A stretch of 64,000 nucleotides of DNA, from the NCBI GenBank assembly GCA_965250085.1, contig OZ252287.1:256001-320000 (forward strand), given 5' to 3'. Under the pieces are notes generated by a model. It saw only the letters and a program-made list of their open reading frames with translations. It made no database searches and was not told where the DNA came from. Source of the DNA: Candidatus Altimarinota bacterium (lineage in GTDB: Bacteria > Patescibacteriota > Gracilibacteria > CAIRYL01). A program made the translations under genes and the position numbers. How positions within the stretch are numbered: position 1 is the stretch's first letter; each line of letters begins with the position of its first letter. Positions 32,601-59,736 of this stretch are shown in pieces.

Positions 32601-34947
32601 CAACATTGATATTGATGGTGGCAATACTGACTCACAGTCAGAAGGAACAGCTGCAAACACTGTGATCTCTGCTATTACTTCAACTGATGATGGCGAAGAC
32701 AATACGGAAAGCTACACATACTCGCTCACTTGTACCGTAGCTGGAGTTGATGACGCCCACTTTAATATCTTAGGTACTGATCTTCGCAACACAACAGTCT
32801 TTGACTTCCTTATCCCCGTTGATGACAATACCGACAATGACTACGAGATTTGTCTACGAGTTACGGAAACCAATGGAGGTCTCACCTATGATGAAAACTT
32901 CACCATCACCGTGACTGACACAAACTCTGCTCCAACTGATATCCAAATTGATGGAGGGAACACCGACAGTATTGATGAAAACACTTCCTCTGGAACAACA
33001 GTTGGAACCTTAACAACAACTGACGCTGATGGAGGAGATACTCACACATACACTTTTGTTGCTGGTACGGGAGATGAAGACAATGCACTCTTCACTATCG
33101 GAGGTGCAGGGTCTGACGAAGTGAAGCTTGCCTTCGTGCCTGACTTTGAAACTCCAGTGGATGACAATACCGACAATACATACAACCTGCGTATTCAAAC
33201 GGATGATGGTAATGGTGGCACTTATGTAGAAGCTATTACTGTGACAGTTAATGACCTTAACACTGCTCCAACCAACATTGATATTGATGGTGGCAATACT
33301 GACTCACAGTCAGAAGGAACAGCTGCAAACACTGTGATCTCTGCTATTACTTCAACTGATGATGGCGAAGACAATACGGAAAGCTACACATACTCGCTCA
33401 CTTGTACCGTAGCTGGAGTTGATGACGCCCACTTTAATATCTTAGGTACTGATCTTCGCAACACAACAGTCTTTGACTTCCTTATCCCCGTTGATGACAA
33501 TACCGACAATGACTACGAGATTTGTCTACGAGTTACGGAAACCAATGGAGGTCTCACCTATGATGAAAACTTCACCATCACCGTGACTGACACAAACTCT
33601 GCTCCAACTGATATCCAAATTGATGGAGGGAACACCGACAGTATTGATGAAAACACTTCCTCTGGAACAACAGTTGGAACCTTAACAACAACTGACGCTG
33701 ATGGAGGAGATACTCACACATACACTTTTGTTGCTGGTACGGGAGATGAAGACAATGCACTCTTCACTATCGGAGGTGCAGGGTCTGACGAAGTGAAGCT
33801 TGCCTTCGTGCCTGACTTTGAAACTCCAGTGGATGACAATACCGACAATACATACAACCTGCGTATTCAAACGGATGATGGTAATGGTGGCACTTATGTA
33901 GAAGCTATTACTGTGACAGTTAATGACCTTAACACTGCTCCAACCAACATTGATATTGATGGTGGCAATACTGACTCACAGTCAGAAGGAACAGCTGCAA
34001 ACACTGTGATCTCTGCTATTACTTCAACTGATGATGGCGAAGACAATACGGAAAGCTACACATACTCGCTCACTTGTACCGTAGCTGGAGTTGATGACGC
34101 CCACTTTAATATCTTAGGTACTGATCTTCGCAACACAACAGTCTTTGACTTCCTTATCCCCGTTGATGACAATACCGACAATGACTACGAGATTTGTCTA
34201 CGAGTTACGGAAACCAATGGAGGTCTCACCTATGATGAAAACCTTACTGTGGGTATAAATAGTCTTGGTGATACAGTAGCTCCAAGAGGTAGTGGGAGTA
34301 ACAGACGAATTCGTGAAAGTTTTGCACGGAAAGAAGAAGAGTTAAGGACCAGTGCTTCTGAAGAAGATACTTCAGAAGAAGACTCATGTACAACAAAGTT
34401 TCGAGATACACAAGAGCACTGGGGAGAAAGGTATATTACCAAACTCGAATGTCTGGATATTGTTCATGGAAGAAGTAATAATCTGGAGATCTTTGAACCA
34501 GATGATGAGATCATGAGAGCTGAGCTTGCTAAGATAGCTGTTCTTATTGCTGGTTACAGTCCTGATTTGAATGCTGTTGATGCATTTCCTGATGTGAGAA
34601 AGGATCATTGGGGACTCCCCTACATCTCTGTGGCAAGAGAAAAAGGAATTCTGCGGGGATACAAAGATGGATACTTCAGACCATCACAGTTTGTTACCAG
34701 AGCTGAAGCTCTCAAGATGCTTCTTCTTGCCGGAGGGTTTGATCTGGGTTCTTTGAGAAAAAGGATTTCTCAGTTCAGAGATGTGGAGGACTTTGCTTGG
34801 TACAGAGATATTATTGACTTTGGAATTGAGAAAGGGATTATTGAGGGATATTCTTCCAAAGTATTTAAGCCTAATGAGTACATCACAAGAACAGAAGCAG
34901 CAAGGATGGCAGTTTTGGTATTGGAGTTTATGGAAGCAAATCAGTAA
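23644..34947 (+). CDS. Giant surface adhesin (~3767 aa): acidic stalk, two LamG/lectin-like modules, 18 cadherin-like domains, C-terminal SLH
   Basis: Signal ending AYAQ; E/D-rich region; LWLKADAGV and SYLALKYGITL modules twice; NSAPTDI..DEN..DADGGDTHTY..DFET; C-terminal SLH motifs. Confidence 0.85.
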   Translation: MNIKNKYSRLFSRTIALIAAFSIIQGEIVAIPLAYAQEEQIIEEQETREELQDTQDFEEEEEEDEEVSEDETTEGSEETSVEEKEGENEDTVEEGEIEIEEEAEVGGEEEDQSEQGNESESENKEVSEENTEDTVNDEEDESEKKENGDDEILEDKTIGDSEEEEVGDEKDGEDESEKNDQSANDEDESEENGEEEEEETDAVSEGNDQSANDEDESEENGEEEDGDDKVSEKTSEEEVESDEETQEDFLGIEGLSGELRILDENKFAFVLTERDVPEHREGQAINQTEVLETLTKALTTSEEVLAEKEADEDKNFITKTFTSDVSDLSEVVTDDPEEIIEEVVAEIVEENQEFTNFFSVQITPKAGGETITLDPAEEYSFVSGSVVLVLEPNLVLDPGTYIITVEVVNPITGETEIITQDLNWGVLAMNTNQDTYLANDTATIDFGMIDETGAVVCDGALDLDITKPDGSTTTLSTASGDIVVSETCGELTNDIPADYTTTYAFTQEGTYTLALDAVNANGAYSDVTFGRLEKTVVVGAASFDAVISRNMNTRLFPGKDADVSITLDFSTDFAGGIYDVAPLEFELKNIGQGGVEDISESGEHKVIVWNVTASAGESITLSYTYNAPDVSPYFYTVGPLQSADGSIVEAQVWQIANDALPAPGAVDTNLELWLKADAGVEEAASDPAEDADAVLNWLDQSGNNNDVTQATTANKPAYAASTINFNPGVDFDGVNDILKGSSALLANTPGFDVYMVTQTDATQTQNYGRAFYAGGTVSNGRINLILGVNNANPRIMRTLGHQGATNIINVENVSAVGIPTLYEGRLDDANNDRLLIVNGTEHDNDAFTTNTNNGTDNFMSLGAEIGEPTFSYEGMITEIIVYNQDNATAADRQKIQSYLALKYGITLDQGTAQDYLASDGTDKIWDKDATGASTYDNDIVGVGRDDDSALGQVQSKSVNDDAIVEVLAESEGTNAANSFVDIADLEFLTFGNDDGAATWTATGAPTDYEILTRQWSVQETGDVGTVQLDIDVADADFDLPSVLDDYYFIYDADNDGDLSDETPVVMTDQGGNIWRITGINFDSGEEFTLARAEPLSPGGVASNLQLWFKADAGVTGTTAVTAWTDQSGAGYDATATQGPELSTNSINFNPALDFVSAGSEYLQIINGILGTSTHNDAWVYTVSKTDLDQQQNIFFENVSGTSEYFNLITPWNNEQTYFDFGNITVAGRIQVLWGSNYGDYNMWTYGTSDGTATPNSTRKVIQRDGAVIASNNNNDNATGNNSNFNIGGGYSDGVGTTNSFDGKIAEMIVYLGVPSALEQEKVQSYLGVKYGITKNSADNGGTGGEDERDYFASDGTVIWDYSANSTYHNDVTGVGRDDDSGLGQVESRSINADSIIHITADGEGTNAANSFVDIADLEFLTFGNDDGSTSVASSEVPSGIDERLAREWLAQETGDVGNITIAFDLDDQTALTNTGTASDYRLLVDADGDFSNATISSATVAFVGNEITFSGVSELDDGEYFTVSMVNSAPTDLQIDGGNTDSIDENTSSGTTVGTLTTTDADGGDTHTYTFVAGTGDEDNAKFTIGGAGSDEVKLAFLPDFETPVDANTDNTYNLRIETSDGAQTYAEAITITINDLNVAPTNIDIDGGNTDSQSEGTAANTVISAITSTDDGEDNTESYTYSLTCTVAGVDDAHFNILGTDLRNTTVFDFLVPVDDNTDNDYEICLRVTETNGGLTYDENFTITVTDTNSAPTDIQIDGGNTDSIDENTSSGTTVGTLTTTDADGGDTHTYTFVAGTGDEDNALFTIGGAGSDEVKLAFVPDFETPVDDNTDNTYNLRIQTDDGNGGTYVEAITVTVNDLNTAPTNIDIDGGNTDSQSEGTAANTVISAITSTDDGEDNTESYTYSLTCTVAGVDDAHFNILGTDLRNTTVFDFLIPVDDNTDNDYEICLRVTETNGGLTYDENFTITVTDTNSAPTDIQIDGGNTDSIDENTSSGTTVGTLTTTDADGGDTHTYTFVAGTGDEDNAKFTIGGAGSDEVKLAFVPDFETPVDDNTDNTYNLRIQTDDGNGGTYVEAITVTVNDLNTAPTNIDIDGGNTDSQSEGTAANTVISAITSTDDGEDNTESYTYSLTCTVAGVDDAHFNILGTDLRNTTVFDFLIPVDDNTDNDYEICLRVTETNGGLTYDENFTITVTDTNSAPTDIQIDGGNTDSIDENTSSGTTVGTLTTTDADGGDTHTYTFVAGTGDEDNAKFTIGGAGSDEVKLAFVPDFETPVDDNTDNTYNLRIQTDDGNGGTYVEAITVTVNDLNTAPTNIDIDGGNTDSQSEGTAANTVISAITSTDDGEDNTESYTYSLTCTVAGVDDAHFNILGTDLRNTTVFDFLIPVDDNTDNDYEICLRVTETNGGLTYDENFTITVTDTNSAPTDIQIDGGNTDSIDENTSSGTTVGTLTTTDADGGDTHTYTFVAGTGDEDNAKFTIGGAGSDEVKLAFVPDFETPVDDNTDNTYNLRIQTDDGNGGTYVEAITVTVNDLNTAPTNIDIDGGNTDSQSEGTAANTVISAITSTDDGEDNTESYTYSLTCTVAGVDDAHFNILGTDLRNTTVFDFLVPVDDNTDNDYEICLRVTETNGGLTYDENFTITVTDTNSAPTDIQIDGGNTDSIDENTSSGTTVGTLTTTDADGGDTHTYTFVAGTGDEDNALFTIGGAGSDEVKLAFVPDFETPVDDNTDNTYNLRIQTDDGNGGTYVEAITVTVNDLNTAPTNIDIDGGNTDSQSEGTAANTVISAITSTDDGEDNTESYTYSLTCTVAGVDDAHFNILGTDLRNTTVFDFLIPVDDNTDNDYEICLRVTETNGGLTYDENFTITVTDTNSAPTDIQIDGGNTDSIDENTSSGTTVGTLTTTDADGGDTHTYTFVAGTGDEDNALFTIGGAGSDEVKLAFVPDFETPVDDNTDNTYNLRIQTDDGNGGTYVEAITVTVNDLNTAPTNIDIDGGNTDSQSEGTAANTVISAITSTDDGEDNTESYTYSLTCTVAGVDDAHFNILGTDLRNTTVFDFLIPVDDNTDNDYEICLRVTETNGGLTYDENFTITVTDTNSAPTDIQIDGGNTDSIDENTSSGTTVGTLTTTDADGGDTHTYTFVAGTGDEDNALFTIGGAGSDEVKLAFVPDFETPVDDNTDNTYNLRIQTDDGNGGTYVEAITVTVNDLNTAPTNIDIDGGNTDSQSEGTAANTVISAITSTDDGEDNTESYTYSLTCTVAGVDDAHFNILGTDLRNTTVFDFLIPVDDNTDNDYEICLRVTETNGGLTYDENFTITVTDTNSAPTDIQIDGGNTDSIDENTSSGTTVGTLTTTDADGGDTHTYTFVAGTGDEDNALFTIGGAGSDEVKLAFVPDFETPVDDNTDNTYNLRIQTDDGNGGTYVEAITVTVNDLNTAPTNIDIDGGNTDSQSEGTAANTVISAITSTDDGEDNTESYTYSLTCTVAGVDDAHFNILGTDLRNTTVFDFLIPVDDNTDNDYEICLRVTETNGGLTYDENLTVGINSLGDTVAPRGSGSNRRIRESFARKEEELRTSASEEDTSEEDSCTTKFRDTQEHWGERYITKLECLDIVHGRSNNLEIFEPDDEIMRAELAKIAVLIAGYSPDLNAVDAFPDVRKDHWGLPYISVAREKGILRGYKDGYFRPSQFVTRAEALKMLLLAGGFDLGSLRKRISQFRDVEDFAWYRDIIDFGIEKGIIEGYSSKVFKPNEYITRTEAARMAVLVLEFMEANQ
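28222..34250 (+). repeat. Nine tandem ~672-bp coding repeats, two cadherin-like domains each
   Basis: aactctgctccaactgat at 28891, 29563, 30235, 30907, 31579, 32251, 32923, 33595 plus a divergent 669-bp first unit. Confidence 0.97.
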
Positions 34948-53553: not shown

Positions 53554-54666
53554 ATGAACAACTTTGATATTATTCAAACGGCATTTACAGAATATCCCCG
53601 AGAAGCAATCGTAACAACTCTTCTGGTCCTCCTTCCCGTCATTGGATGGGGATTTGCCTTTACCAGACGAAAAACACCTGGGAAGAAGGTCATATTTCTC
53701 ACGTTTGGAGCCGGTATTATTTCGGCGCTCATTATGTTTCTCTACCAATATTATTGGGAAACGAAGCTGGATTTTGGATTCTTTGAACTCACACCGGTAG
53801 ATTTTCAAGAAAACATAGGTGGATGGGTGCAAAACAGGCTTCTTTCTATTTTTTTGGTCGCCATGTCTATCGGTCTTATAGAAGAATATTTGAAACATTG
53901 GGTCGTCAAAAAATCAGATCATAACTATTTTGATTCTGTAAATGATGTGATAGAGCTTTCCATCATCGCCGCCTTGGGGTTTGCATTTACAGAAAATATG
54001 ATTTATCTCCTTCGAGAAATCATCACTCATGGCATGACTCAGAAATTTTTTTCTCTCTTTATTTTGAGATCGCTCTTTGTGGTCTTTGTGCATGTGCTGT
54101 GTTCCGGTATTTATGGATACTACTATGGGGTGGGATATTACGCGAGACCGATACTTGAAGAAGACGAACACGAAGGTCGTAAAAGGTGGATCCCTAATTT
54201 TCTTCATCGACTCATTCATTGGAAAAAAGCACGCATCTTTCATGATGAAATGATTGCCTTGGGACTCATTATCTCGGTAGTAATACATGGATTATTCGAC
54301 TTTTTCATGTCTGTCAATTGGAGTGTGGGAAGTATGCTCGGCGTTGCGAGTCTCGAAAAAGTGGGGATCCATATCATCGTTCTGCCCGCATACCTTATCT
54401 TTGGACTCTTATACTTGGCAAAAATATTTCAAAAAAAGAGATATCATGAGCATTTTGGCCATCTCACAGTACAAAAAGTCTATGGCGAATACGATCTCAA
54501 ACAAAATATTGAAAAACTCCGTGAAGTCGAAGAAGCAGTAGAAGAAAACTACCGCCACAAAAATGAGGGAAAATCTGAGGAAAACTTAGAAGAAAACCTC
54601 AAAAAAATGAGAGATATGGAAGAGACAATTGAAGATCATTATAAGAATCAGAGAAAAGATTCATAA
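53554..54666 (+). CDS. PrsW-family intramembrane metalloprotease
   Basis: GLIEEYLK, LGFAFTEN, VHVLCSG, IHGLFD; multi-TM. Confidence 0.88.
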   Translation: MNNFDIIQTAFTEYPREAIVTTLLVLLPVIGWGFAFTRRKTPGKKVIFLTFGAGIISALIMFLYQYYWETKLDFGFFELTPVDFQENIGGWVQNRLLSIFLVAMSIGLIEEYLKHWVVKKSDHNYFDSVNDVIELSIIAALGFAFTENMIYLLREIITHGMTQKFFSLFILRSLFVVFVHVLCSGIYGYYYGVGYYARPILEEDEHEGRKRWIPNFLHRLIHWKKARIFHDEMIALGLIISVVIHGLFDFFMSVNWSVGSMLGVASLEKVGIHIIVLPAYLIFGLLYLAKIFQKKRYHEHFGHLTVQKVYGEYDLKQNIEKLREVEEAVEENYRHKNEGKSEENLEENLKKMRDMEETIEDHYKNQRKDS

Positions 54667-54796
54667 GGCATGAAAAAGTCCCTAGAAGGGGGTGATAGGC
54701 TACTGGTTTAATTCCAGTATGGATCAAGTCTCCCATCTCTGAATTTATCTCTCTTCCATTGTTCTCGTGCATATTTCTCTGCTATGTCTTCATCTG

Positions 54797-55723
54797 TTAA
54801 GATATCCATGGAACCCTGAGTGAGCCGCGCCATCCTAGGTTTTTGCTCCAATCTTCAACGTTTCGTAAGCATACGTTAGTCCCCCCAGTCCCCATTAAAG
54901 CTCTATCACTCATTCTTATATTGATATCTGTATTGAGCCAACAAGAATCATTTTGATCAAGACGATTCCCACCAGAATGTGGATGAGAGCCTGCATCATA
55001 CTTTGGTCCAAGAACATATAGGTAGTGATGTTCACTCATAAGTTTTACACCCATTGCCTCAGCTTGTTCTACAGCACCATTTTTATTGAGGCGTTTTGAA
55101 GCTAATTTCTTTTCTCGTTCGCTTAGTTTTCTTGACCTCCTGACATGCTCAAGTGCAGTATTGTCGAACACGCAAAAAGAAGAATCTATAGGAGTATCCA
55201 GGGAACAAGTACCAACATTAAACCCAAATTCATCTGAATGATAGATATTTGGCTCATGGCCTGCTTGTTCCATTTGACGAATGCTCCAGATAAACCTTGG
55301 GTCCTCCTCAATAGAACCTTTAACTTTGTACAATTGTAAATCTTCTTGACCTTTATGTAAGTTTTCACATCTTCTATATCTTTTAGATAGGATTCGAAAG
55401 GTCTCTTCTTTTTTTTCTGAAGTGAGTTCATATGATTGATCTTCATTTGACTCAGAGGTTTCTGAAGGAAGATGTTGTAAAGCTATCCTTAATGCTTCAT
55501 TACTCACGTTTTTCTTTATTTTATTCACATCACTTTCCGATGAAAGGTTTATTCTACCTCCAATGTCATCAATAGTAGCATCTCCCAAAAGTGCCATTCT
55601 CTCTAGGAGGAATATGGTCCTTTCTTCAGATGATTCCTCTGGTTTTCTACTGTCTTTGTCCTCTTGAGTAGCGGTATGCACTATTGGAGTTTTGGTGGAA
55701 GATGAATCTGGTAGCTCTGACAT
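54797..55723 (-). CDS. DUF4256-like protein with N-terminal extension
   Basis: WSIRQMEQAGHEP, CSLDTP, AVEQAEAMGVKLM, SCWLNT, GWRGSLRV. Confidence 0.7.
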   Translation of the reverse strand: MSELPDSSSTKTPIVHTATQEDKDSRKPEESSEERTIFLLERMALLGDATIDDIGGRINLSSESDVNKIKKNVSNEALRIALQHLPSETSESNEDQSYELTSEKKEETFRILSKRYRRCENLHKGQEDLQLYKVKGSIEEDPRFIWSIRQMEQAGHEPNIYHSDEFGFNVGTCSLDTPIDSSFCVFDNTALEHVRRSRKLSEREKKLASKRLNKNGAVEQAEAMGVKLMSEHHYLYVLGPKYDAGSHPHSGGNRLDQNDSCWLNTDINIRMSDRALMGTGGTNVCLRNVEDWSKNLGWRGSLRVPWIS

Positions 55724-55788
55724 TAGGATGTTGTAAAATAATTTAAGCTAAGAGCAGAAAAGGATTGTGGGGTATTTCTGACATCTTC

Positions 55789-55817
55789 ATTTTAGTATAC
55801 ATTTTACTTTATGTCAA
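55789..55817 (-). promoter_or_regulatory. Promoter of the DUF4256-like gene
   Basis: TTGACA-17-TAAAAT on the minus strand. Confidence 0.7.
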
Positions 55818-55988
55818 TACCTAGTCTTGTCTAATACAAGATTGCCCTGAACAAAGGATCGATTTCTAACGCAGAATTGCCCTGAATGGTCTAAAATGGA
55901 CAGCTTTATCACTCCATTTAATGACTTTCATGTTTAATGACCGTAAAATTCGACGGGTACAGGATCTACTTCCATTTCTGAATACTCT

Positions 55989-56416
55989 GTTGGTTCAGGT
56001 TTGCAACCTGAATCCCTCTGTTTCCATCGCTTTTTTATGCTGAAATGCCCTCCTTCGAAGGGGTCCCTTTGGGACAAGGGTTCTCTCATGGAGAACGGGA
56101 AGACAGAGACATCAGAAGTAAGTTACAAACTTGCTCCAACGGAAGATGAATATTTCAATCAAGTAGAGGACGGGTTGCGACCCGTCCCTTCCATAAGAGT
56201 GTCGTGAGCCTAAGGCTGGTTCAACTCTCGTGAGTTGAATCATGATGTTTCGGTTGCTCCAAATTCTTTCCCCCAAAGTAAGAAGCGCAATGGATCGTAT
56301 CTCTTTTCTGTCCTCGAAATAAGGGGAGCAACTCAGAGAGATTGCTCCAGCTTAACTTTCGAGTAGTCCCTACAAAAACTGACAACTGACTTGACTACGA
56401 AGCGACCCCTTTGGGG
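55989..56416. repeat. Cluster of nested REP-like palindromes
   Basis: gttggttcaggtttgcaacctgaatcc; gtaagttacaaacttgctccaac; gtagaggacgggttgcgacccgtcc; gctggttcaactctcgtgagttgaatc; ggagcaactcagagagattgctccagc. Confidence 0.75.
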
Positions 56417-56424
56417 CTTACTCC

Positions 56425-58380
56425 TTATTTCTTCTTTTTCTTCTTCTCTTCTTTTTTCTCTTTTTTATCCTCCTTTTTCTTATCATCATCTACCACTTCT
56501 GCATCTTCGACATCATCCTTTTTTTCGTCTGAAGCATCAGAGCTCTTCTTGTCTTCTTCTGCTTTTGCCTCTTCAGCGGCCTTCTGATAGATCTCAGCAC
56601 CACCTTTTTGAAGCGCTTCCATAAGAGTGTCGTGAGCCTTTTTGAGTTCTTCTCCAGAGGCTTTTTCATTTTTGAGCACCTCTCCAGCTGATGTGAGCTC
56701 TTTTTGAATCGCTTCTACATTTTCTTTGGATATCTTATCTTCATCATCTTTTATCATTTTTTCTCCTTGAAACACAGCAGCATCCAAGTGATTGCGGGCT
56801 TCTATCAATTCTTTCTTCTGCTTGTCTTCATCAGCATGTGCTTCAGCATCTTTTTGCATCTTCTCGACTTCTTCTTCACTGAGACCAGATGATCCTTGGA
56901 TCGTAATATGCTGCTCCTTTCCAGTGCCCTTATCCTTTGCTTTGACATTCAAGATACCATTAGCATCGATATCAAAGGTGACCTCAATTTGGGGTACGCC
57001 ACGCGGAGCTGGAGGAATTCCATCCAAGATGAATCTTCCAAGTGATTTGTTATCTACGGCCATTTCGCGCTCTCCTTGAGACACATGCACCTCCACACTG
57101 CCCTGGTTATCAGCAGCAGTAGAAAAAATCTGAGATTTTGATGTGGGGATAGTGGTGTTTCGTTCAATGAGTTTGGTGGCAATTCCTCCCAGAGTTTCAA
57201 TACCGAGAGAAAGCGGAGTCACATCCAGAAGTACGACATCCTTTACATCACCAGTAAGGACTCCTCCTTGGATAGCGGCCCCAATAGCAACCACTTCATC
57301 AGGATTGACTCCTTTGTGTGGATCTTTTCCAAAAAACTTCTTTACCGCCTCTTGCACTGCTGGCATACGCGTCATTCCTCCTACGAGAATCACCTCATCG
57401 ATGTCACTTGCTTTGAGCTTGGCGTCTTTGAGGGCTTTTTCGCAGGGTGTGATTGACCTTTCGATCAGATCTGAAACCATGCTTTCGAGCTTGGCTCGTG
57501 AGAGTTTGTGCACAAAGTGCTTTGGCCCACTACTATCGGCGGTAATAAAGGGCAAATTAATCTCCGTCTCGGTATTAGAAGAAAGTTCTATTTTTGCCTT
57601 TTCTGCACCTTCTTTCAGTCTCTGGAGTGCCATTTGGTCCTTGGAGAGATCAATGCCTTCCGATTTTTTGAATTCTGCGAGGAGATGATCAATGATTGCC
57701 TGATCAAAGTCGTCACCTCCAAGATGAGTATCTCCATTCGTGGCGATTACTTCAAAAACTCCATCTCCGAGTTCAAGAAGAGAAATATCAAAAGTTCCTC
57801 CTCCCAGATCATAAACGGCGATTTTTTCATTTTTATGCTTTTTTTCCAGTCCATATGCGAGTGCAGCAGCGGTTGGTTCGTTGATAATACGCTCTACTTC
57901 GAGTCCAGCAATCTTTCCGGCATCCTTGGTGGCTTGGCGCTGTGAATCATTAAAATATGCTGGAACAGTGATCACTGCTTTTGTTACTGGCTGACCCAGA
58001 AAACTCTCTGCATCTACTTTGAGTTTTTGCAAAATCATAGCCGCAATTTCTGCTGGTTGTTTTTCTTTGCCATCAAACATAATGCGCACATCACCATCTT
58101 TTCCCTTTGTAATGTCATAGGGCATTTCTTTCATTTCTTGTTTTACTTCGTCGTACTTACGACCGACAAAACGTTTGGAAGAAAAAATAGTGTTTTTGGG
58201 GTTGGTGACTGCTTGGCGTTTTGCAGGGATCCCTACCAGACGCTCAGCATCTTTTTGTGCGACGACAGATGGAGTCGTTCTCCCTCCTTCTGCATTGGGG
58301 ATAACCGTTGGCTCTCCACCTTCCATCACGGCAACGCATGAGTTGGTGGTCCCGAGATCGATTCCTATAATTTTTGACAT
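56425..58380 (-). CDS. dnaK: Chaperone DnaK
   Basis: [31 protein letters not shown]; start ATG 58380. Confidence 0.99.
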
Positions 58381-58406
58381 TTTGAAATAAAATAAAAAAT
58401 AAAAAC

Positions 58407-58433
58407 TTAGCACTCTCCATTTTAGAGTGCTAA
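58407..58433. promoter_or_regulatory. CIRCE operator (HrcA) overlapping the dnaK promoter
   Basis: Perfect TTAGCACTC-N9-GAGTGCTAA; minus-strand TTGACG-17-TAAAAT overlaps it. Confidence 0.95.
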
Positions 58434-59026: not shown

Positions 59027-59736
59027 GGCTCTTGAGTAGAATAATTACTTCAATTATTCTCTTAACATGCTTAAACACAGTAAAATATCGAATTATAAGA
59101 TCAAAAAAATATTGAAGTGTTTTTGTGAAGATCTCAATGCATCAAAAACAGCAAATATTCTAGATCTCAATCGGAGAACGGTTGATCGATATTTTAATAT
59201 TTTTAGAGAAAAGATTGCAAAGTTCTCTTTAGCACAGTCAAAGAGTTTTGGAGAATTTGAACTTGATGAAAGTTACTTTGGAGCAAAGAGAATGAGAGGA
59301 AAGAGAGGAAGAGGAGCCGCAGGAAAGACTCCTGTCTTTGGAATCCTTCAAAGAGAAGGAAGGGTATTTGTTTCTATTGTAAAAGATTGCTCCAGAAAAG
59401 AGCTCCTACCTATTATTCAAGGAAAAATACTAGAAGGATCAACTATTCATACTGATGGATGGAGAGCTTATGATGGACTCATTCTCAATGGATATGATCA
59501 CTATCGTATTCATCACTCAGAAAATGAATTTGCACGAGGAAAATGTCATGTAAATGGTATTGAATCCTTTTGGTCTTTTGCGAAAAGAAGACTCTCTAAG
59601 TTTAACGGAATTGCTTCTCACAAGTTTAACTTTCACCTCAAAGAATGTGAGTGGCGATGGAACTATAAAGATCAAGATATTTTTGTTATAATGTCCAAAA
59701 TTATCAGAGATTTTTAAAATCTCCTACTCTAGAGCC
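59027..59736 (+). mobile_element. IS1595-family (IS1016-like) insertion sequence, 710 bp
   Basis: TIRs ggctcttgagtag / ctactctagagcc; 8-bp TSD TAAATATA at 59019-59026 and 59737-59744. Confidence 0.93.
59067..59717 (+). CDS. IS1595-family transposase
   Basis: ELDESYFG, KRGRGAAGKTPVFG, IHTDGW, HVNGIESFWS, LKECEWR. Confidence 0.95.
   Translation: MLKHSKISNYKIKKILKCFCEDLNASKTANILDLNRRTVDRYFNIFREKIAKFSLAQSKSFGEFELDESYFGAKRMRGKRGRGAAGKTPVFGILQREGRVFVSIVKDCSRKELLPIIQGKILEGSTIHTDGWRAYDGLILNGYDHYRIHHSENEFARGKCHVNGIESFWSFAKRRLSKFNGIASHKFNFHLKECEWRWNYKDQDIFVIMSKIIRDF

Follow-up and report, generated by a model that had tools for sequence, protein, structure and literature searches.

In a 64,000-nucleotide stretch of the genome of a Candidatus Altimarinota bacterium (contig OZ252287.1; hereafter the window), the gene dnaK is followed by a 700-nt spacer that contains hairpins of the repetitive extragenic palindromic (REP) type and, between two of these, an exact 24-nt copy of dnaK coding sequence. 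We describe this copy, the REP families around it, and the REP-associated tyrosine transposases (RAYTs) encoded by the same genome (G000; a single contig of 1.37 Mb, Patescibacteria-type), and we weigh the explanations for the origin of the copy. The gene and the two copies of the repeat are as follows.

56425 to 58413, minus strand: dnaK (Hsp70), with a Lys/Glu-rich C-terminal tail (translation matches Pfam PF00012 HSP70; 886 bits, E = 9e-267)
56616 to 56639, plus strand: copy within dnaK (putative donor), encoding KAHDTLME on the minus strand and bounded on the plus strand by GC|TT and CC|TT
56188 to 56211, plus strand: intergenic copy, an exact match; the probable transferred core is 56189 to 56210 (22 nt), lying between the C and the T of a split C|T

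The direct repeat CTTCCATAAGAGTGTCGTGAGCCT occurs at exactly two plus-strand sites, spaced 428 nt apart, with no third site even when up to 3 mismatches are allowed, and none of 100 dinucleotide-preserving shuffles held two or more matches to the 24-mer. A first-pass annotation, made from the letters of the window, had reported this direct repeat; the match is exact at both positions, and translation of dnaK places the second copy at K-A-H-D-T-L-M-E, as had been stated. The borders of the repeat are sharp, the adjoining bases differing between the copies on the left (c/g) and on the right (a/t). Searches of the spacer with the 3' part of dnaK (tblastn and blastn) recovered the 24-mer alone and no other dnaK-derived sequence, and on this result a decayed dnaK duplicate in the spacer was rejected. 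Contigs from three public sequencing runs (16,824 nt each) span positions 55600 to 57000 with 0 differences and no joints, and in a fourth run the same region is covered in two pieces. All four runs come from a single sample and study, which may be the source of the window itself; they therefore demonstrate a reproducible assembly rather than an arrangement common to independent strains. Because the contigs cross the locus without differences or joints, the misassembly against which the first-pass annotation had cautioned is unlikely. The 24-mer repeat is real and nonrandom.

The DnaK proteins of a same-family relative (G004) and of a metagenome-assembled genome (MAG) labeled Gracilibacteria (L042) likewise contain KAHDTLME followed by a homologous Glu/Lys-rich tail. 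Because the relatives keep both, the copy within dnaK is the original; this comparison marks the dnaK copy and the present DnaK tail as native, the intergenic copy as derived. In G004, the dnaK stop (at 1721) is followed by a plain terminator hairpin only, with the next open reading frame (ORF) starting at 1775; in the window genome, the stretch from dnaK to the next gene measures 700 nt. In a synteny comparison, the gene after dnaK in G004 proved unrelated to that of the window genome, so that relative offers no orthologous empty site. The end of DnaK in the window (56425 to 56615, minus strand) is an unusually long acidic/basic tail, with homologous Glu/Lys-rich tails in relatives, and low-complexity contigs from other organisms pile up on this segment in the run-contig comparison. 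Genetic code 25 was considered and rejected, given that table 11 yields long ORFs genome-wide, that dnaK has no in-frame TGA, and that the spacer ORFs obtained with code 25 are unsupported.

The sequence between the two copies bears on a proposal of the first-pass annotation, that the repeat is a scar of integration into the 3' end of dnaK. An element would have recombined into the gene via the 24-nt identity and brought a replacement tail, in the manner of an att site or a gene-tail cassette; alternatively, the repeat would be what is left of a larger tandem duplication in which no RAYT took part. The direct repeats do flank a 404-nt unit comprising the DnaK tail, the terminator, and a REP doublet, but this unit contains no integrase, and the tail within it is homologous to the tails of relatives. 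Moreover, the intergenic copy is not followed by an orphan DnaK tail (the dnaK frame reads GTGRNPSST-stop), the searches described above found nothing of the dnaK 3' part beyond the 24-mer, and the copies lie in different frames relative to their spacing (428 = 3 × 142 + 2). An att core would be accompanied by a displaced 3' end and a recombinase; the 404-nt interval consists of tail, terminator, and REPs. We therefore consider an integration scar improbable.

REP families of the spacer and RAYT genes of the genome

The 700-nt spacer after dnaK is a cluster of REP hairpins of two families, resembling a bacterial interspersed mosaic element (BIME). Besides the intergenic copy, it contains the following features.

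56163 to 56187, plus strand: GTAG-tagged REP hairpin (GTAG at 56163 to 56166, arms at 56168 to 56175 and 56180 to 56187, loop TGCG), recovered in the genome-wide scan for GTAG plus hairpin
56215 to 56254, plus strand: GYTGG-family REP (tag GCTGG, hairpin at 56217 to 56242, tail ATGATGTTTC); the same architecture flanks RAYT-1 and its orthologues
56323 to 56351, minus strand: inverted REP (GCTGG-AGCAA... on the minus strand), forming a REPIN/BIME-like doublet with 56215 to 56254
55989 to 56026, plus strand: second GYTGG-family REP (tag GTTGG, hairpin at 55992 to 56014, tail CCTCTGTTTCC)
56131 to 56140, plus strand: TTGCTCCAAC, resembling the 3' arm and tag of an inverted REP that would close the first element (our reading of a repeat comparison)
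56363 to 56373, plus strand: GTAG-TCC-CTAC, apparently the GTAG and the CTAC foot, separated by next to no stem
56400 to 56419, minus strand: terminator-like hairpin directly past the dnaK stop (plus strand, AAGC-GACCCC-TTT-GGGG-CTT)
55789 to 55817, minus strand: promoter-like TTGACA-17-TAAAAT (11 of 12 consensus positions), preceding the next gene (54797 to 55723, minus strand) at the far end of the REP cluster

The hairpin to the left of the 24-mer reads GTAG-A-GGACGGGT-TGCG-ACCCGTCC and belongs to the GTAG family, that to the right belongs to the GYTGG family, and the insert starts one base past the 3' foot of the former. The first-pass annotation had drawn both hairpins as we find them (56168 to 56187, preceded by GTAG, and 56217 to 56242); its labels "REP-like" and "GTAG-type" were correct, as was its guess at a Y1 transposase, there being two REP families here and four RAYT genes in the genome. 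Genome-wide, GTAG with a perfect GC-containing hairpin gave 44 strand-wise hits, by our count 33 loci, 11 of which are perfect GTAG...CTAC palindromes. The tag precedes such hairpins at 6.25 per 1000 occurrences versus 0.1 to 1.3 for 10 other permutations of its letters, a 5- to 50-fold difference. The GYTGG family has the form G(C/T)TGG, a hairpin of about 10 bp, and ...TGTTTC, and occupies about 15 loci (25 strand-wise regular-expression hits); its spacer members at 56215 to 56242 and 55989 to 56014 match other copies at 83 to 100% over 24 to 48 nt. The REP at 56215 to 56254 has a 95% identical copy at positions 533388 to 533414 of the genome, and the inverted doublet to which it belongs (56215 to 56351) has a sister at 533.2 to 533.4 kb. 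Copies of the inverted REP (56323 to 56351) that are 93 to 100% identical over 27 to 45 nt recur at several loci of one relative (G032), and its hairpin type flanks the RAYT genes of four others (G005, G031, G001, and G004). Both families are thus short palindromes with a conserved 5' tag in repeated copies, as expected of REPs, at copy numbers far below those of proteobacteria, in which REPs typically exceed 100 copies per genome (PMC2817692; this and the papers below are cited for the portions of their text consulted).

Several other classes were considered for the hairpins. The GYT...ARC ends, taken as a covarying closing RNA helix, are actually the tags of two inverted REPs, while integron attC sites, DNA uptake sequences, CRISPR repeats, a T-arm, and a miniature inverted-repeat transposable element with a TGAATA duplication were set aside for wrong motif order, copy number, or a chance-level match. 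Neither tRNAs nor tmRNAs were identified by ARAGORN on the six loci at which family copies lie.

Searches of the genome, which the first-pass annotation had foreseen for RAYT/TnpA(Y1) genes, recovered four ORFs of 166 to 180 residues matching NCBIfam NF047646 (REP-associated tyrosine transposase), two above its cutoff of 80 bits (95.6 and 82.4) and two at 69.8 and 56.1 bits; Pfam Y1_Tnp hits support the identification. In one of them, the HUH and YxxxNPV...W.SS motifs (YIENNPVKKKYV..DWIYSS) align with those of Escherichia coli TnpAREP (PDB code 4ER8; E = 0.006). RAYT-1 (1238737 to 1239237) has a GYTGG hairpin directly before its ATG and an inverted copy 2 nt past its stop. Its clade is present in 15 of the 40 relatives searched, and, judged by eye, inverted hairpins of the GYTGG architecture lie on both sides in 9 of 11 RAYT-1-type loci (that of the window genome included) and downstream only in the other 2, with stems that vary between genomes and include both stem types of the window. 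RAYT-2 is bracketed by inverted GGGAGCAGGTGT arms. RAYT-3 and RAYT-4 each carry, in frame and just past the HUH motif, a perfect GTAG...CTAC palindrome (118202 to 118229 [L110:1778-1805] and 394644 to 394671), a signature described for TnpAREP subclass 2.4 (Quentin 2018, PMC6006769). The RAYT-3-type clade occurs in 22 of the 40 relatives; the in-gene palindrome is found in 9 of 11 loci (our two and seven of nine homologues from relatives; L111, L113, and L115 to L120 were examined), its stem differs from genome to genome, and an identical copy also lies in the flank of 3 of the 11. RAYTs flanked by inverted REPs of their own kind, together with these in-gene palindromes, indicate that each hairpin family of the spacer has cognate RAYTs in the genome.

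Further repeats accompany these genes and the spacer. A motif CC(C)GTTGGTTTTAGTCT lies beside RAYT-3 and near RAYT-1, always close to REPs (118475 to 118500, 1238455 to 1238480, and 1240168 to 1240195). The RAYT-2 locus (927900 to 929300; L086/L108) continues into a partial duplicate of its own 5' part (928942 to 929139), 48% identical to RAYT-1 over residues 1 to 66 and embedded in copies of a third REP family (GGGAGCAGGTGT...ACACCTGCTCCC), which are found repeatedly between 922 and 931 kb. In the spacer, TGAATA at 55978 to 55983 and 56147 to 56152 brackets the first REP element (55984 to 56146), either as a chance 6-mer or as a duplication, and is not expected from RAYT-type insertion. Three copies of a 26-nt motif ending (A/G)A(A/T)TGCCCT, 65 to 77% alike (55823 to 55883 and 56026 to 56051), are also present, two between the promoter of the next gene and the first REP and one within the first REP element. 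Short tracts (CTACTACTTACTACTTA or ACTGACAACTGAC) directly follow the stop codons of several genes, in the window at 56376 to 56399 and elsewhere in the genome at about 409.66 to 409.70 kb, 533.96 to 534.00 kb, 465.1 kb, and 877.8 kb; on the gene strand they read as TAG/TAA/TGA-rich words with stops in several frames, possibly a backup stop tract. About 650 nt upstream of dnaK is an ORF (59067 to 59717, plus strand; 216 amino acids) with an ISXO2-like/IS1595 DDE transposase domain (E = 5e-33).

Junctions of the copy and possible routes to its formation

On the plus strand, the intergenic copy reads GTAG A GGACGGGT TGCG ACCCGTCC C|TTCCATAAGAGTGTCGTGAGCC|T AAG GCTGG..., and the copy in dnaK reads ...GAAGCGC|TTCCATAAGAGTGTCGTGAGCC|TTTTGAG. 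The C shared to the left and the T shared to the right of the 22-nt core make the identity 24 nt long. The repeat unit has CT at its start and CT at its end. CT accounts for 0.09 of the local dinucleotides, and by our own post hoc arithmetic both ends would be CT by chance at about 0.008. Removal of 22 nt, in any of three equivalent registers, leaves a spacer GTAGAGGACGGGTTGCGACCCGTCCC|TAAGGCTGG with the GTAG REP followed by CTAA; the restored site, GTAGA-GGACGGGT-tgcg-ACCCGTCC-C|TAAGG, has its CTAA close to the family foot CTAC/cCTAC. The insert lies at a C|T one base 3' of the GTAG REP hairpin, and the junctions are the product expected from three C|T cuts and two joinings, with the dnaK sites 428 and 450 nt farther along the same strand. 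For the ..GG tag of the neighboring REP (GCTGG), the published guide model predicts cutting at C|C, but such a rule misfits the left donor border, and this misfit makes the GTAG-type REP, not the GCTGG one, the likely recruiting site.

The activities described for TnpAREP of E. coli provide a point of reference. This enzyme binds the GTAG hairpin, absolutely requires C|T, and cuts at CC|TAC at the foot of an inverted REP and at C|T in the linker; on single-stranded DNA it cuts C|T over more than 400 nt upstream and downstream of the BIME, forms a 5'-phosphotyrosine link, and transfers strands, giving rise to linker variety and extra units (Ton-Hoang 2012, PMC3333891). The same authors proposed that this reach would enable REP units to acquire flanking genes or pieces of genes, and their models include excision/insertion and rolling-circle-like amplification (PMC3333891). 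The CT site is chosen via positions 3 and 4 of GTAG, and the Marinomonas enzyme cuts 3' of the stem-loop (Corneloup 2021, PMC8266576); C|T cutting with strand transfer is known for the enzymes of E. coli, Stenotrophomonas maltophilia, and Marinomonas (PMC3333891, PMC8266576). Ton-Hoang 2012, in the text consulted, was the sole relevant literature match for the uptake of gene fragments into linkers by TnpAREP. In position, strand, dinucleotide, and distance, the locus appears to fit these published properties.

We accordingly put at about an even chance the proposition that the intergenic 24-mer is the footprint of the genome's own RAYT, an HUH/Y1 enzyme, capturing a piece of dnaK. A RAYT bound to the GTAG REP would cut the plus strand at the C|T by the hairpin (56188|56189 before the event) and at two C|T sites about 430 nt along the same strand within dnaK (56616|17 and 56638|39), and strand transfer would join the 22-nt piece TTCC...GAGCC into the REP-side cut. 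For dnaK to remain intact, the piece would have come from a sister copy, or the gene would have been restored by repair of a heteroduplex. Alternatively, a RAYT-type tandem duplication of the segment bounded by the REP-side C|T and the distal dnaK C|T might have come first, with the segment bounded by the REP-side and the proximal dnaK C|T sites then excised; this route uses the same three sites and never interrupts dnaK. We read the product as a neutral scar in the linker between REPs, not as a working part. Of the first-pass annotation's suggestion of REP/HUH-transposase capture of nearby host sequence, the plain form is the best supported, by the REP families, the RAYTs, and the C|T junctions, while its "spacer-like acquisition" finds no support in what is a single locus.

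Several points weigh against capture by a RAYT. The event is single, the activity of a RAYT here is read from its putative footprint, and the fit to C|T was noticed post hoc. The restored foot reads CTAA instead of CTAC and lacks one C that the typical cCTAC copies have. Cut-and-paste on the same strand would cost an essential gene 22 nt, and the model therefore has to invoke a sister copy, heteroduplex repair, or the two-step route. The cumulative GC skew of the genome has its minimum near 1.17 Mb and its maximum near 0.17 Mb, and the local skew is 0.002; with a skew of about zero, the plus strand is not assignable to the lagging-strand template preferred by Y1 enzymes. Neither the 160 REP-type hairpin hits of the genome nor 344 kb of the relative G035 yielded a second footprint (see below). 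Finally, a CT microhomology at the foot of a hairpin is also consistent with template switching by a polymerase.

In that last scenario, which would account for the position and the length of the insert, a DNA polymerase that came to a halt at the REP hairpin foot would have switched to a template about 430 nt away, copied 22 to 24 nt, and returned via a microhomology of 1 to 2 nt (CT), with no transposase involved. Template switches yield short local templated patches with sharp borders, such as that seen here, and the event is a one-off. The insert also abuts a stable, GC-rich hairpin of 8 bp, and BIME-dependent natural sites of polymerase stalling are reported in the part of Ton-Hoang 2012 consulted (PMC3333891). 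On the other hand, the scenario calls for two switches that share merely 2 nt of homology in all, and it gives no reason for the CT dinucleotide or for the C|TA foot of the GTAG REP; on the CT point alone, with CT at 0.09 locally, we estimate that a transposase is favored about 10-fold. Template switching is the main alternative to capture by a RAYT, a possible but, in our judgment, unlikely origin of the copy.

Recurrence and comparison with known systems

We searched the window genome and those of relatives for other cases. Only at this locus, among the 160 REP-type hairpin hits in the genome, are at least 14 nt of a flank matched by nearby non-REP sequence, and all-against-all searches of the genome found no second case like that of dnaK. 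The 198 pairs of local exact repeats of at least 18 nt within 5 kb lie almost all in repeat proteins or paralogues, and in the genome-wide set of isolated repeats of at least 20 nt (111 rows) the others of at least 22 nt are, by our reading, hairpin/REP, intergenic-intergenic, within-gene, or tRNA-like. In the 344 kb of G035 (contig 1 whole plus 100 kb of contig 2), there are four isolated local repeats, all of them more than 8 kb from any GTAG hairpin. Contig 1 of this relative (L124 to L136) also has, at 33887 to 33986, a 41-nt tRNA-like fragment repeated 59 nt apart, as left by integration at a tRNA gene. At the dnaK loci of four relatives, no second site matches the homologous 24-mer even when up to 4 substitutions are allowed (its register in L015 being approximate). 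A wobble-degenerate scan for the 24-mer over contigs of public genomes (22 loci) and metagenomes (32 loci), from which the window genome itself was left out, found two copies in none of the 54 loci, the sole DnaK among these being that of L042. Thus, neither of the signs to which the first-pass annotation had pointed, further REP-adjacent segments matching neighboring genes and a copy co-varying with dnaK in relatives, was seen in these searches. Nothing in them indicates that a spacer-like process recurs.

The first-pass annotation also suggested that the segment belongs to a working RNA, a plus-strand transcript of the REP cluster in which the 24 nt would serve as an antisense or guide against dnaK mRNA; another form of this reading is a minus-strand decoy in a long dnaK 3' untranslated region. 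The match is perfect over 24 nt, and the predicted fold of the plus strand leaves the first 16 nt of the segment unpaired between hairpins. The plus-strand ATGACT-17-TAAAAT that had been put forward as a promoter is indeed present upstream, but it is weak, matching the consensus at only 9 of 12 positions in a region with 3 promoter-like sites versus 1.1 ± 1.2 in shuffles. The flanking structures, however, are ordinary REPs that are present at unrelated loci, and from REP hairpins alone a low fold energy is to be expected. Rfam gave no hit at an E value up to 1 over 54500 to 57500 and none at gathering score on the six loci with family copies, and no TnpB-type match exceeded its cutoff (best for PF07282, 14.1 bits versus 26.3). 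The most similar element in the genome (533 kb) has no second copy, of at least 16 nt, of its upstream flank, so no sister guide was found, and no co-varying copy turned up in the relatives. An effector gene and a conserved scaffold beside variable guides, by which guide RNAs are recognized, were likewise not found. We regard a working RNA as unsupported and very improbable, and still more so the bolder notion of an HUH-transposase-based, CRISPR-independent making of targeting RNA, with the 22-nt dnaK piece set between REPs as the antisense segment of a plus-strand transcript. The locus looks like a one-off accident rather than a guide-RNA system.

The closest counterpart of the locus is the REP/BIME-TnpAREP system of E. 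coli (REPtron; PDB code 4ER8; Ton-Hoang 2012, Messing 2012, Corneloup 2021). In common with it are clusters of GTAG hairpins that alternate in orientation past genes, RAYT genes with their own REPs on either side, insertion at a C|T by the hairpin foot, and a donor about 430 nt away on the same strand, in keeping with the reported in vitro C|T reach of more than 400 nt. Unlike in E. coli, the host genome here is of the Patescibacteria type, measures 1.37 Mb, and has only tens of REP copies in each family; the RAYTs are known from sequence, and the captured piece is 22 nt long and readable at base resolution, whereas the gene-scale captures of E. coli have no C|T borders described in the text consulted. 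The GTAG family resembles the "double foot" REPs of TnpAREP subclass 2.4/RAYT group 4, with GTAG at the 5' foot and CTAC at the 3' foot in the text consulted (Quentin 2018), a likeness extended to RAYT-3 and RAYT-4 by shared signature only and not by a tree; in contrast to those REPs, the acceptor without its insert has GTAG but, past the stem, CTAA. The GYTGG doublet recalls the REPIN-RAYT system of Pseudomonas as described in the text consulted (Bertels and Rainey 2011), in which inverted REPs and their spacer form a unit and the RAYT is flanked by REPs and inherited within the lineage. It differs in having the tag GYTGG/GCCGG rather than GTAG, a conserved ..TGTTTC tail, about 15 copies rather than hundreds, and doublet arms with different stems.

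More distant likenesses are found in two other groups of systems. Peel-and-paste transposition by IS200/IS605 elements (IS608) involves the same enzyme superfamily and single-strand cuts by hairpins, with no target-site duplication, and in these elements a tetranucleotide guide lying 5' of the hairpin sets the cut sites (PMC8266576); here, however, the piece that moved lacks hairpin ends and does not constitute an element, and no TnpB partner was found. CRISPR spacers, the omega RNAs of TnpB and IscB, and TldR likewise place a piece of about 22 to 24 nt from another locus beside a repeat hairpin, but at this locus we found no array, second acquisition, Cas/TnpB/IscB-type gene, or Rfam family, and the target is an essential gene of the cell itself. 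Among the matches listed in our search of the RAYT and REPIN literature, no Patescibacteria appeared, though one paper pairs "tyrosine transposase" with Patescibacteria.

The locus is a new example of a known element and process, and its interest lies in a clean candidate RAYT footprint and in several REP-RAYT pairs in a very small genome. The 24-nt direct repeat could itself truncate DnaK by deletion, though the run contigs examined show no such deletion. If our interpretation holds, a natural RAYT reaction product would be legible base by base, with its three C|T sites, 428-nt reach, and insertion at a REP foot, and the locus offers a concrete set of substrates for an in vitro test of a RAYT. 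We give about even odds to its also being the first in vivo footprint, at base resolution, of a RAYT cleaving C|T at long range and transferring strands. Knowledge of REP/BIME diversification and of RAYT action on host DNA in vivo comes mostly from test-tube work with a few proteobacterial enzymes; here a reduced, Patescibacteria-type genome is seen to retain three REP families and four RAYTs.

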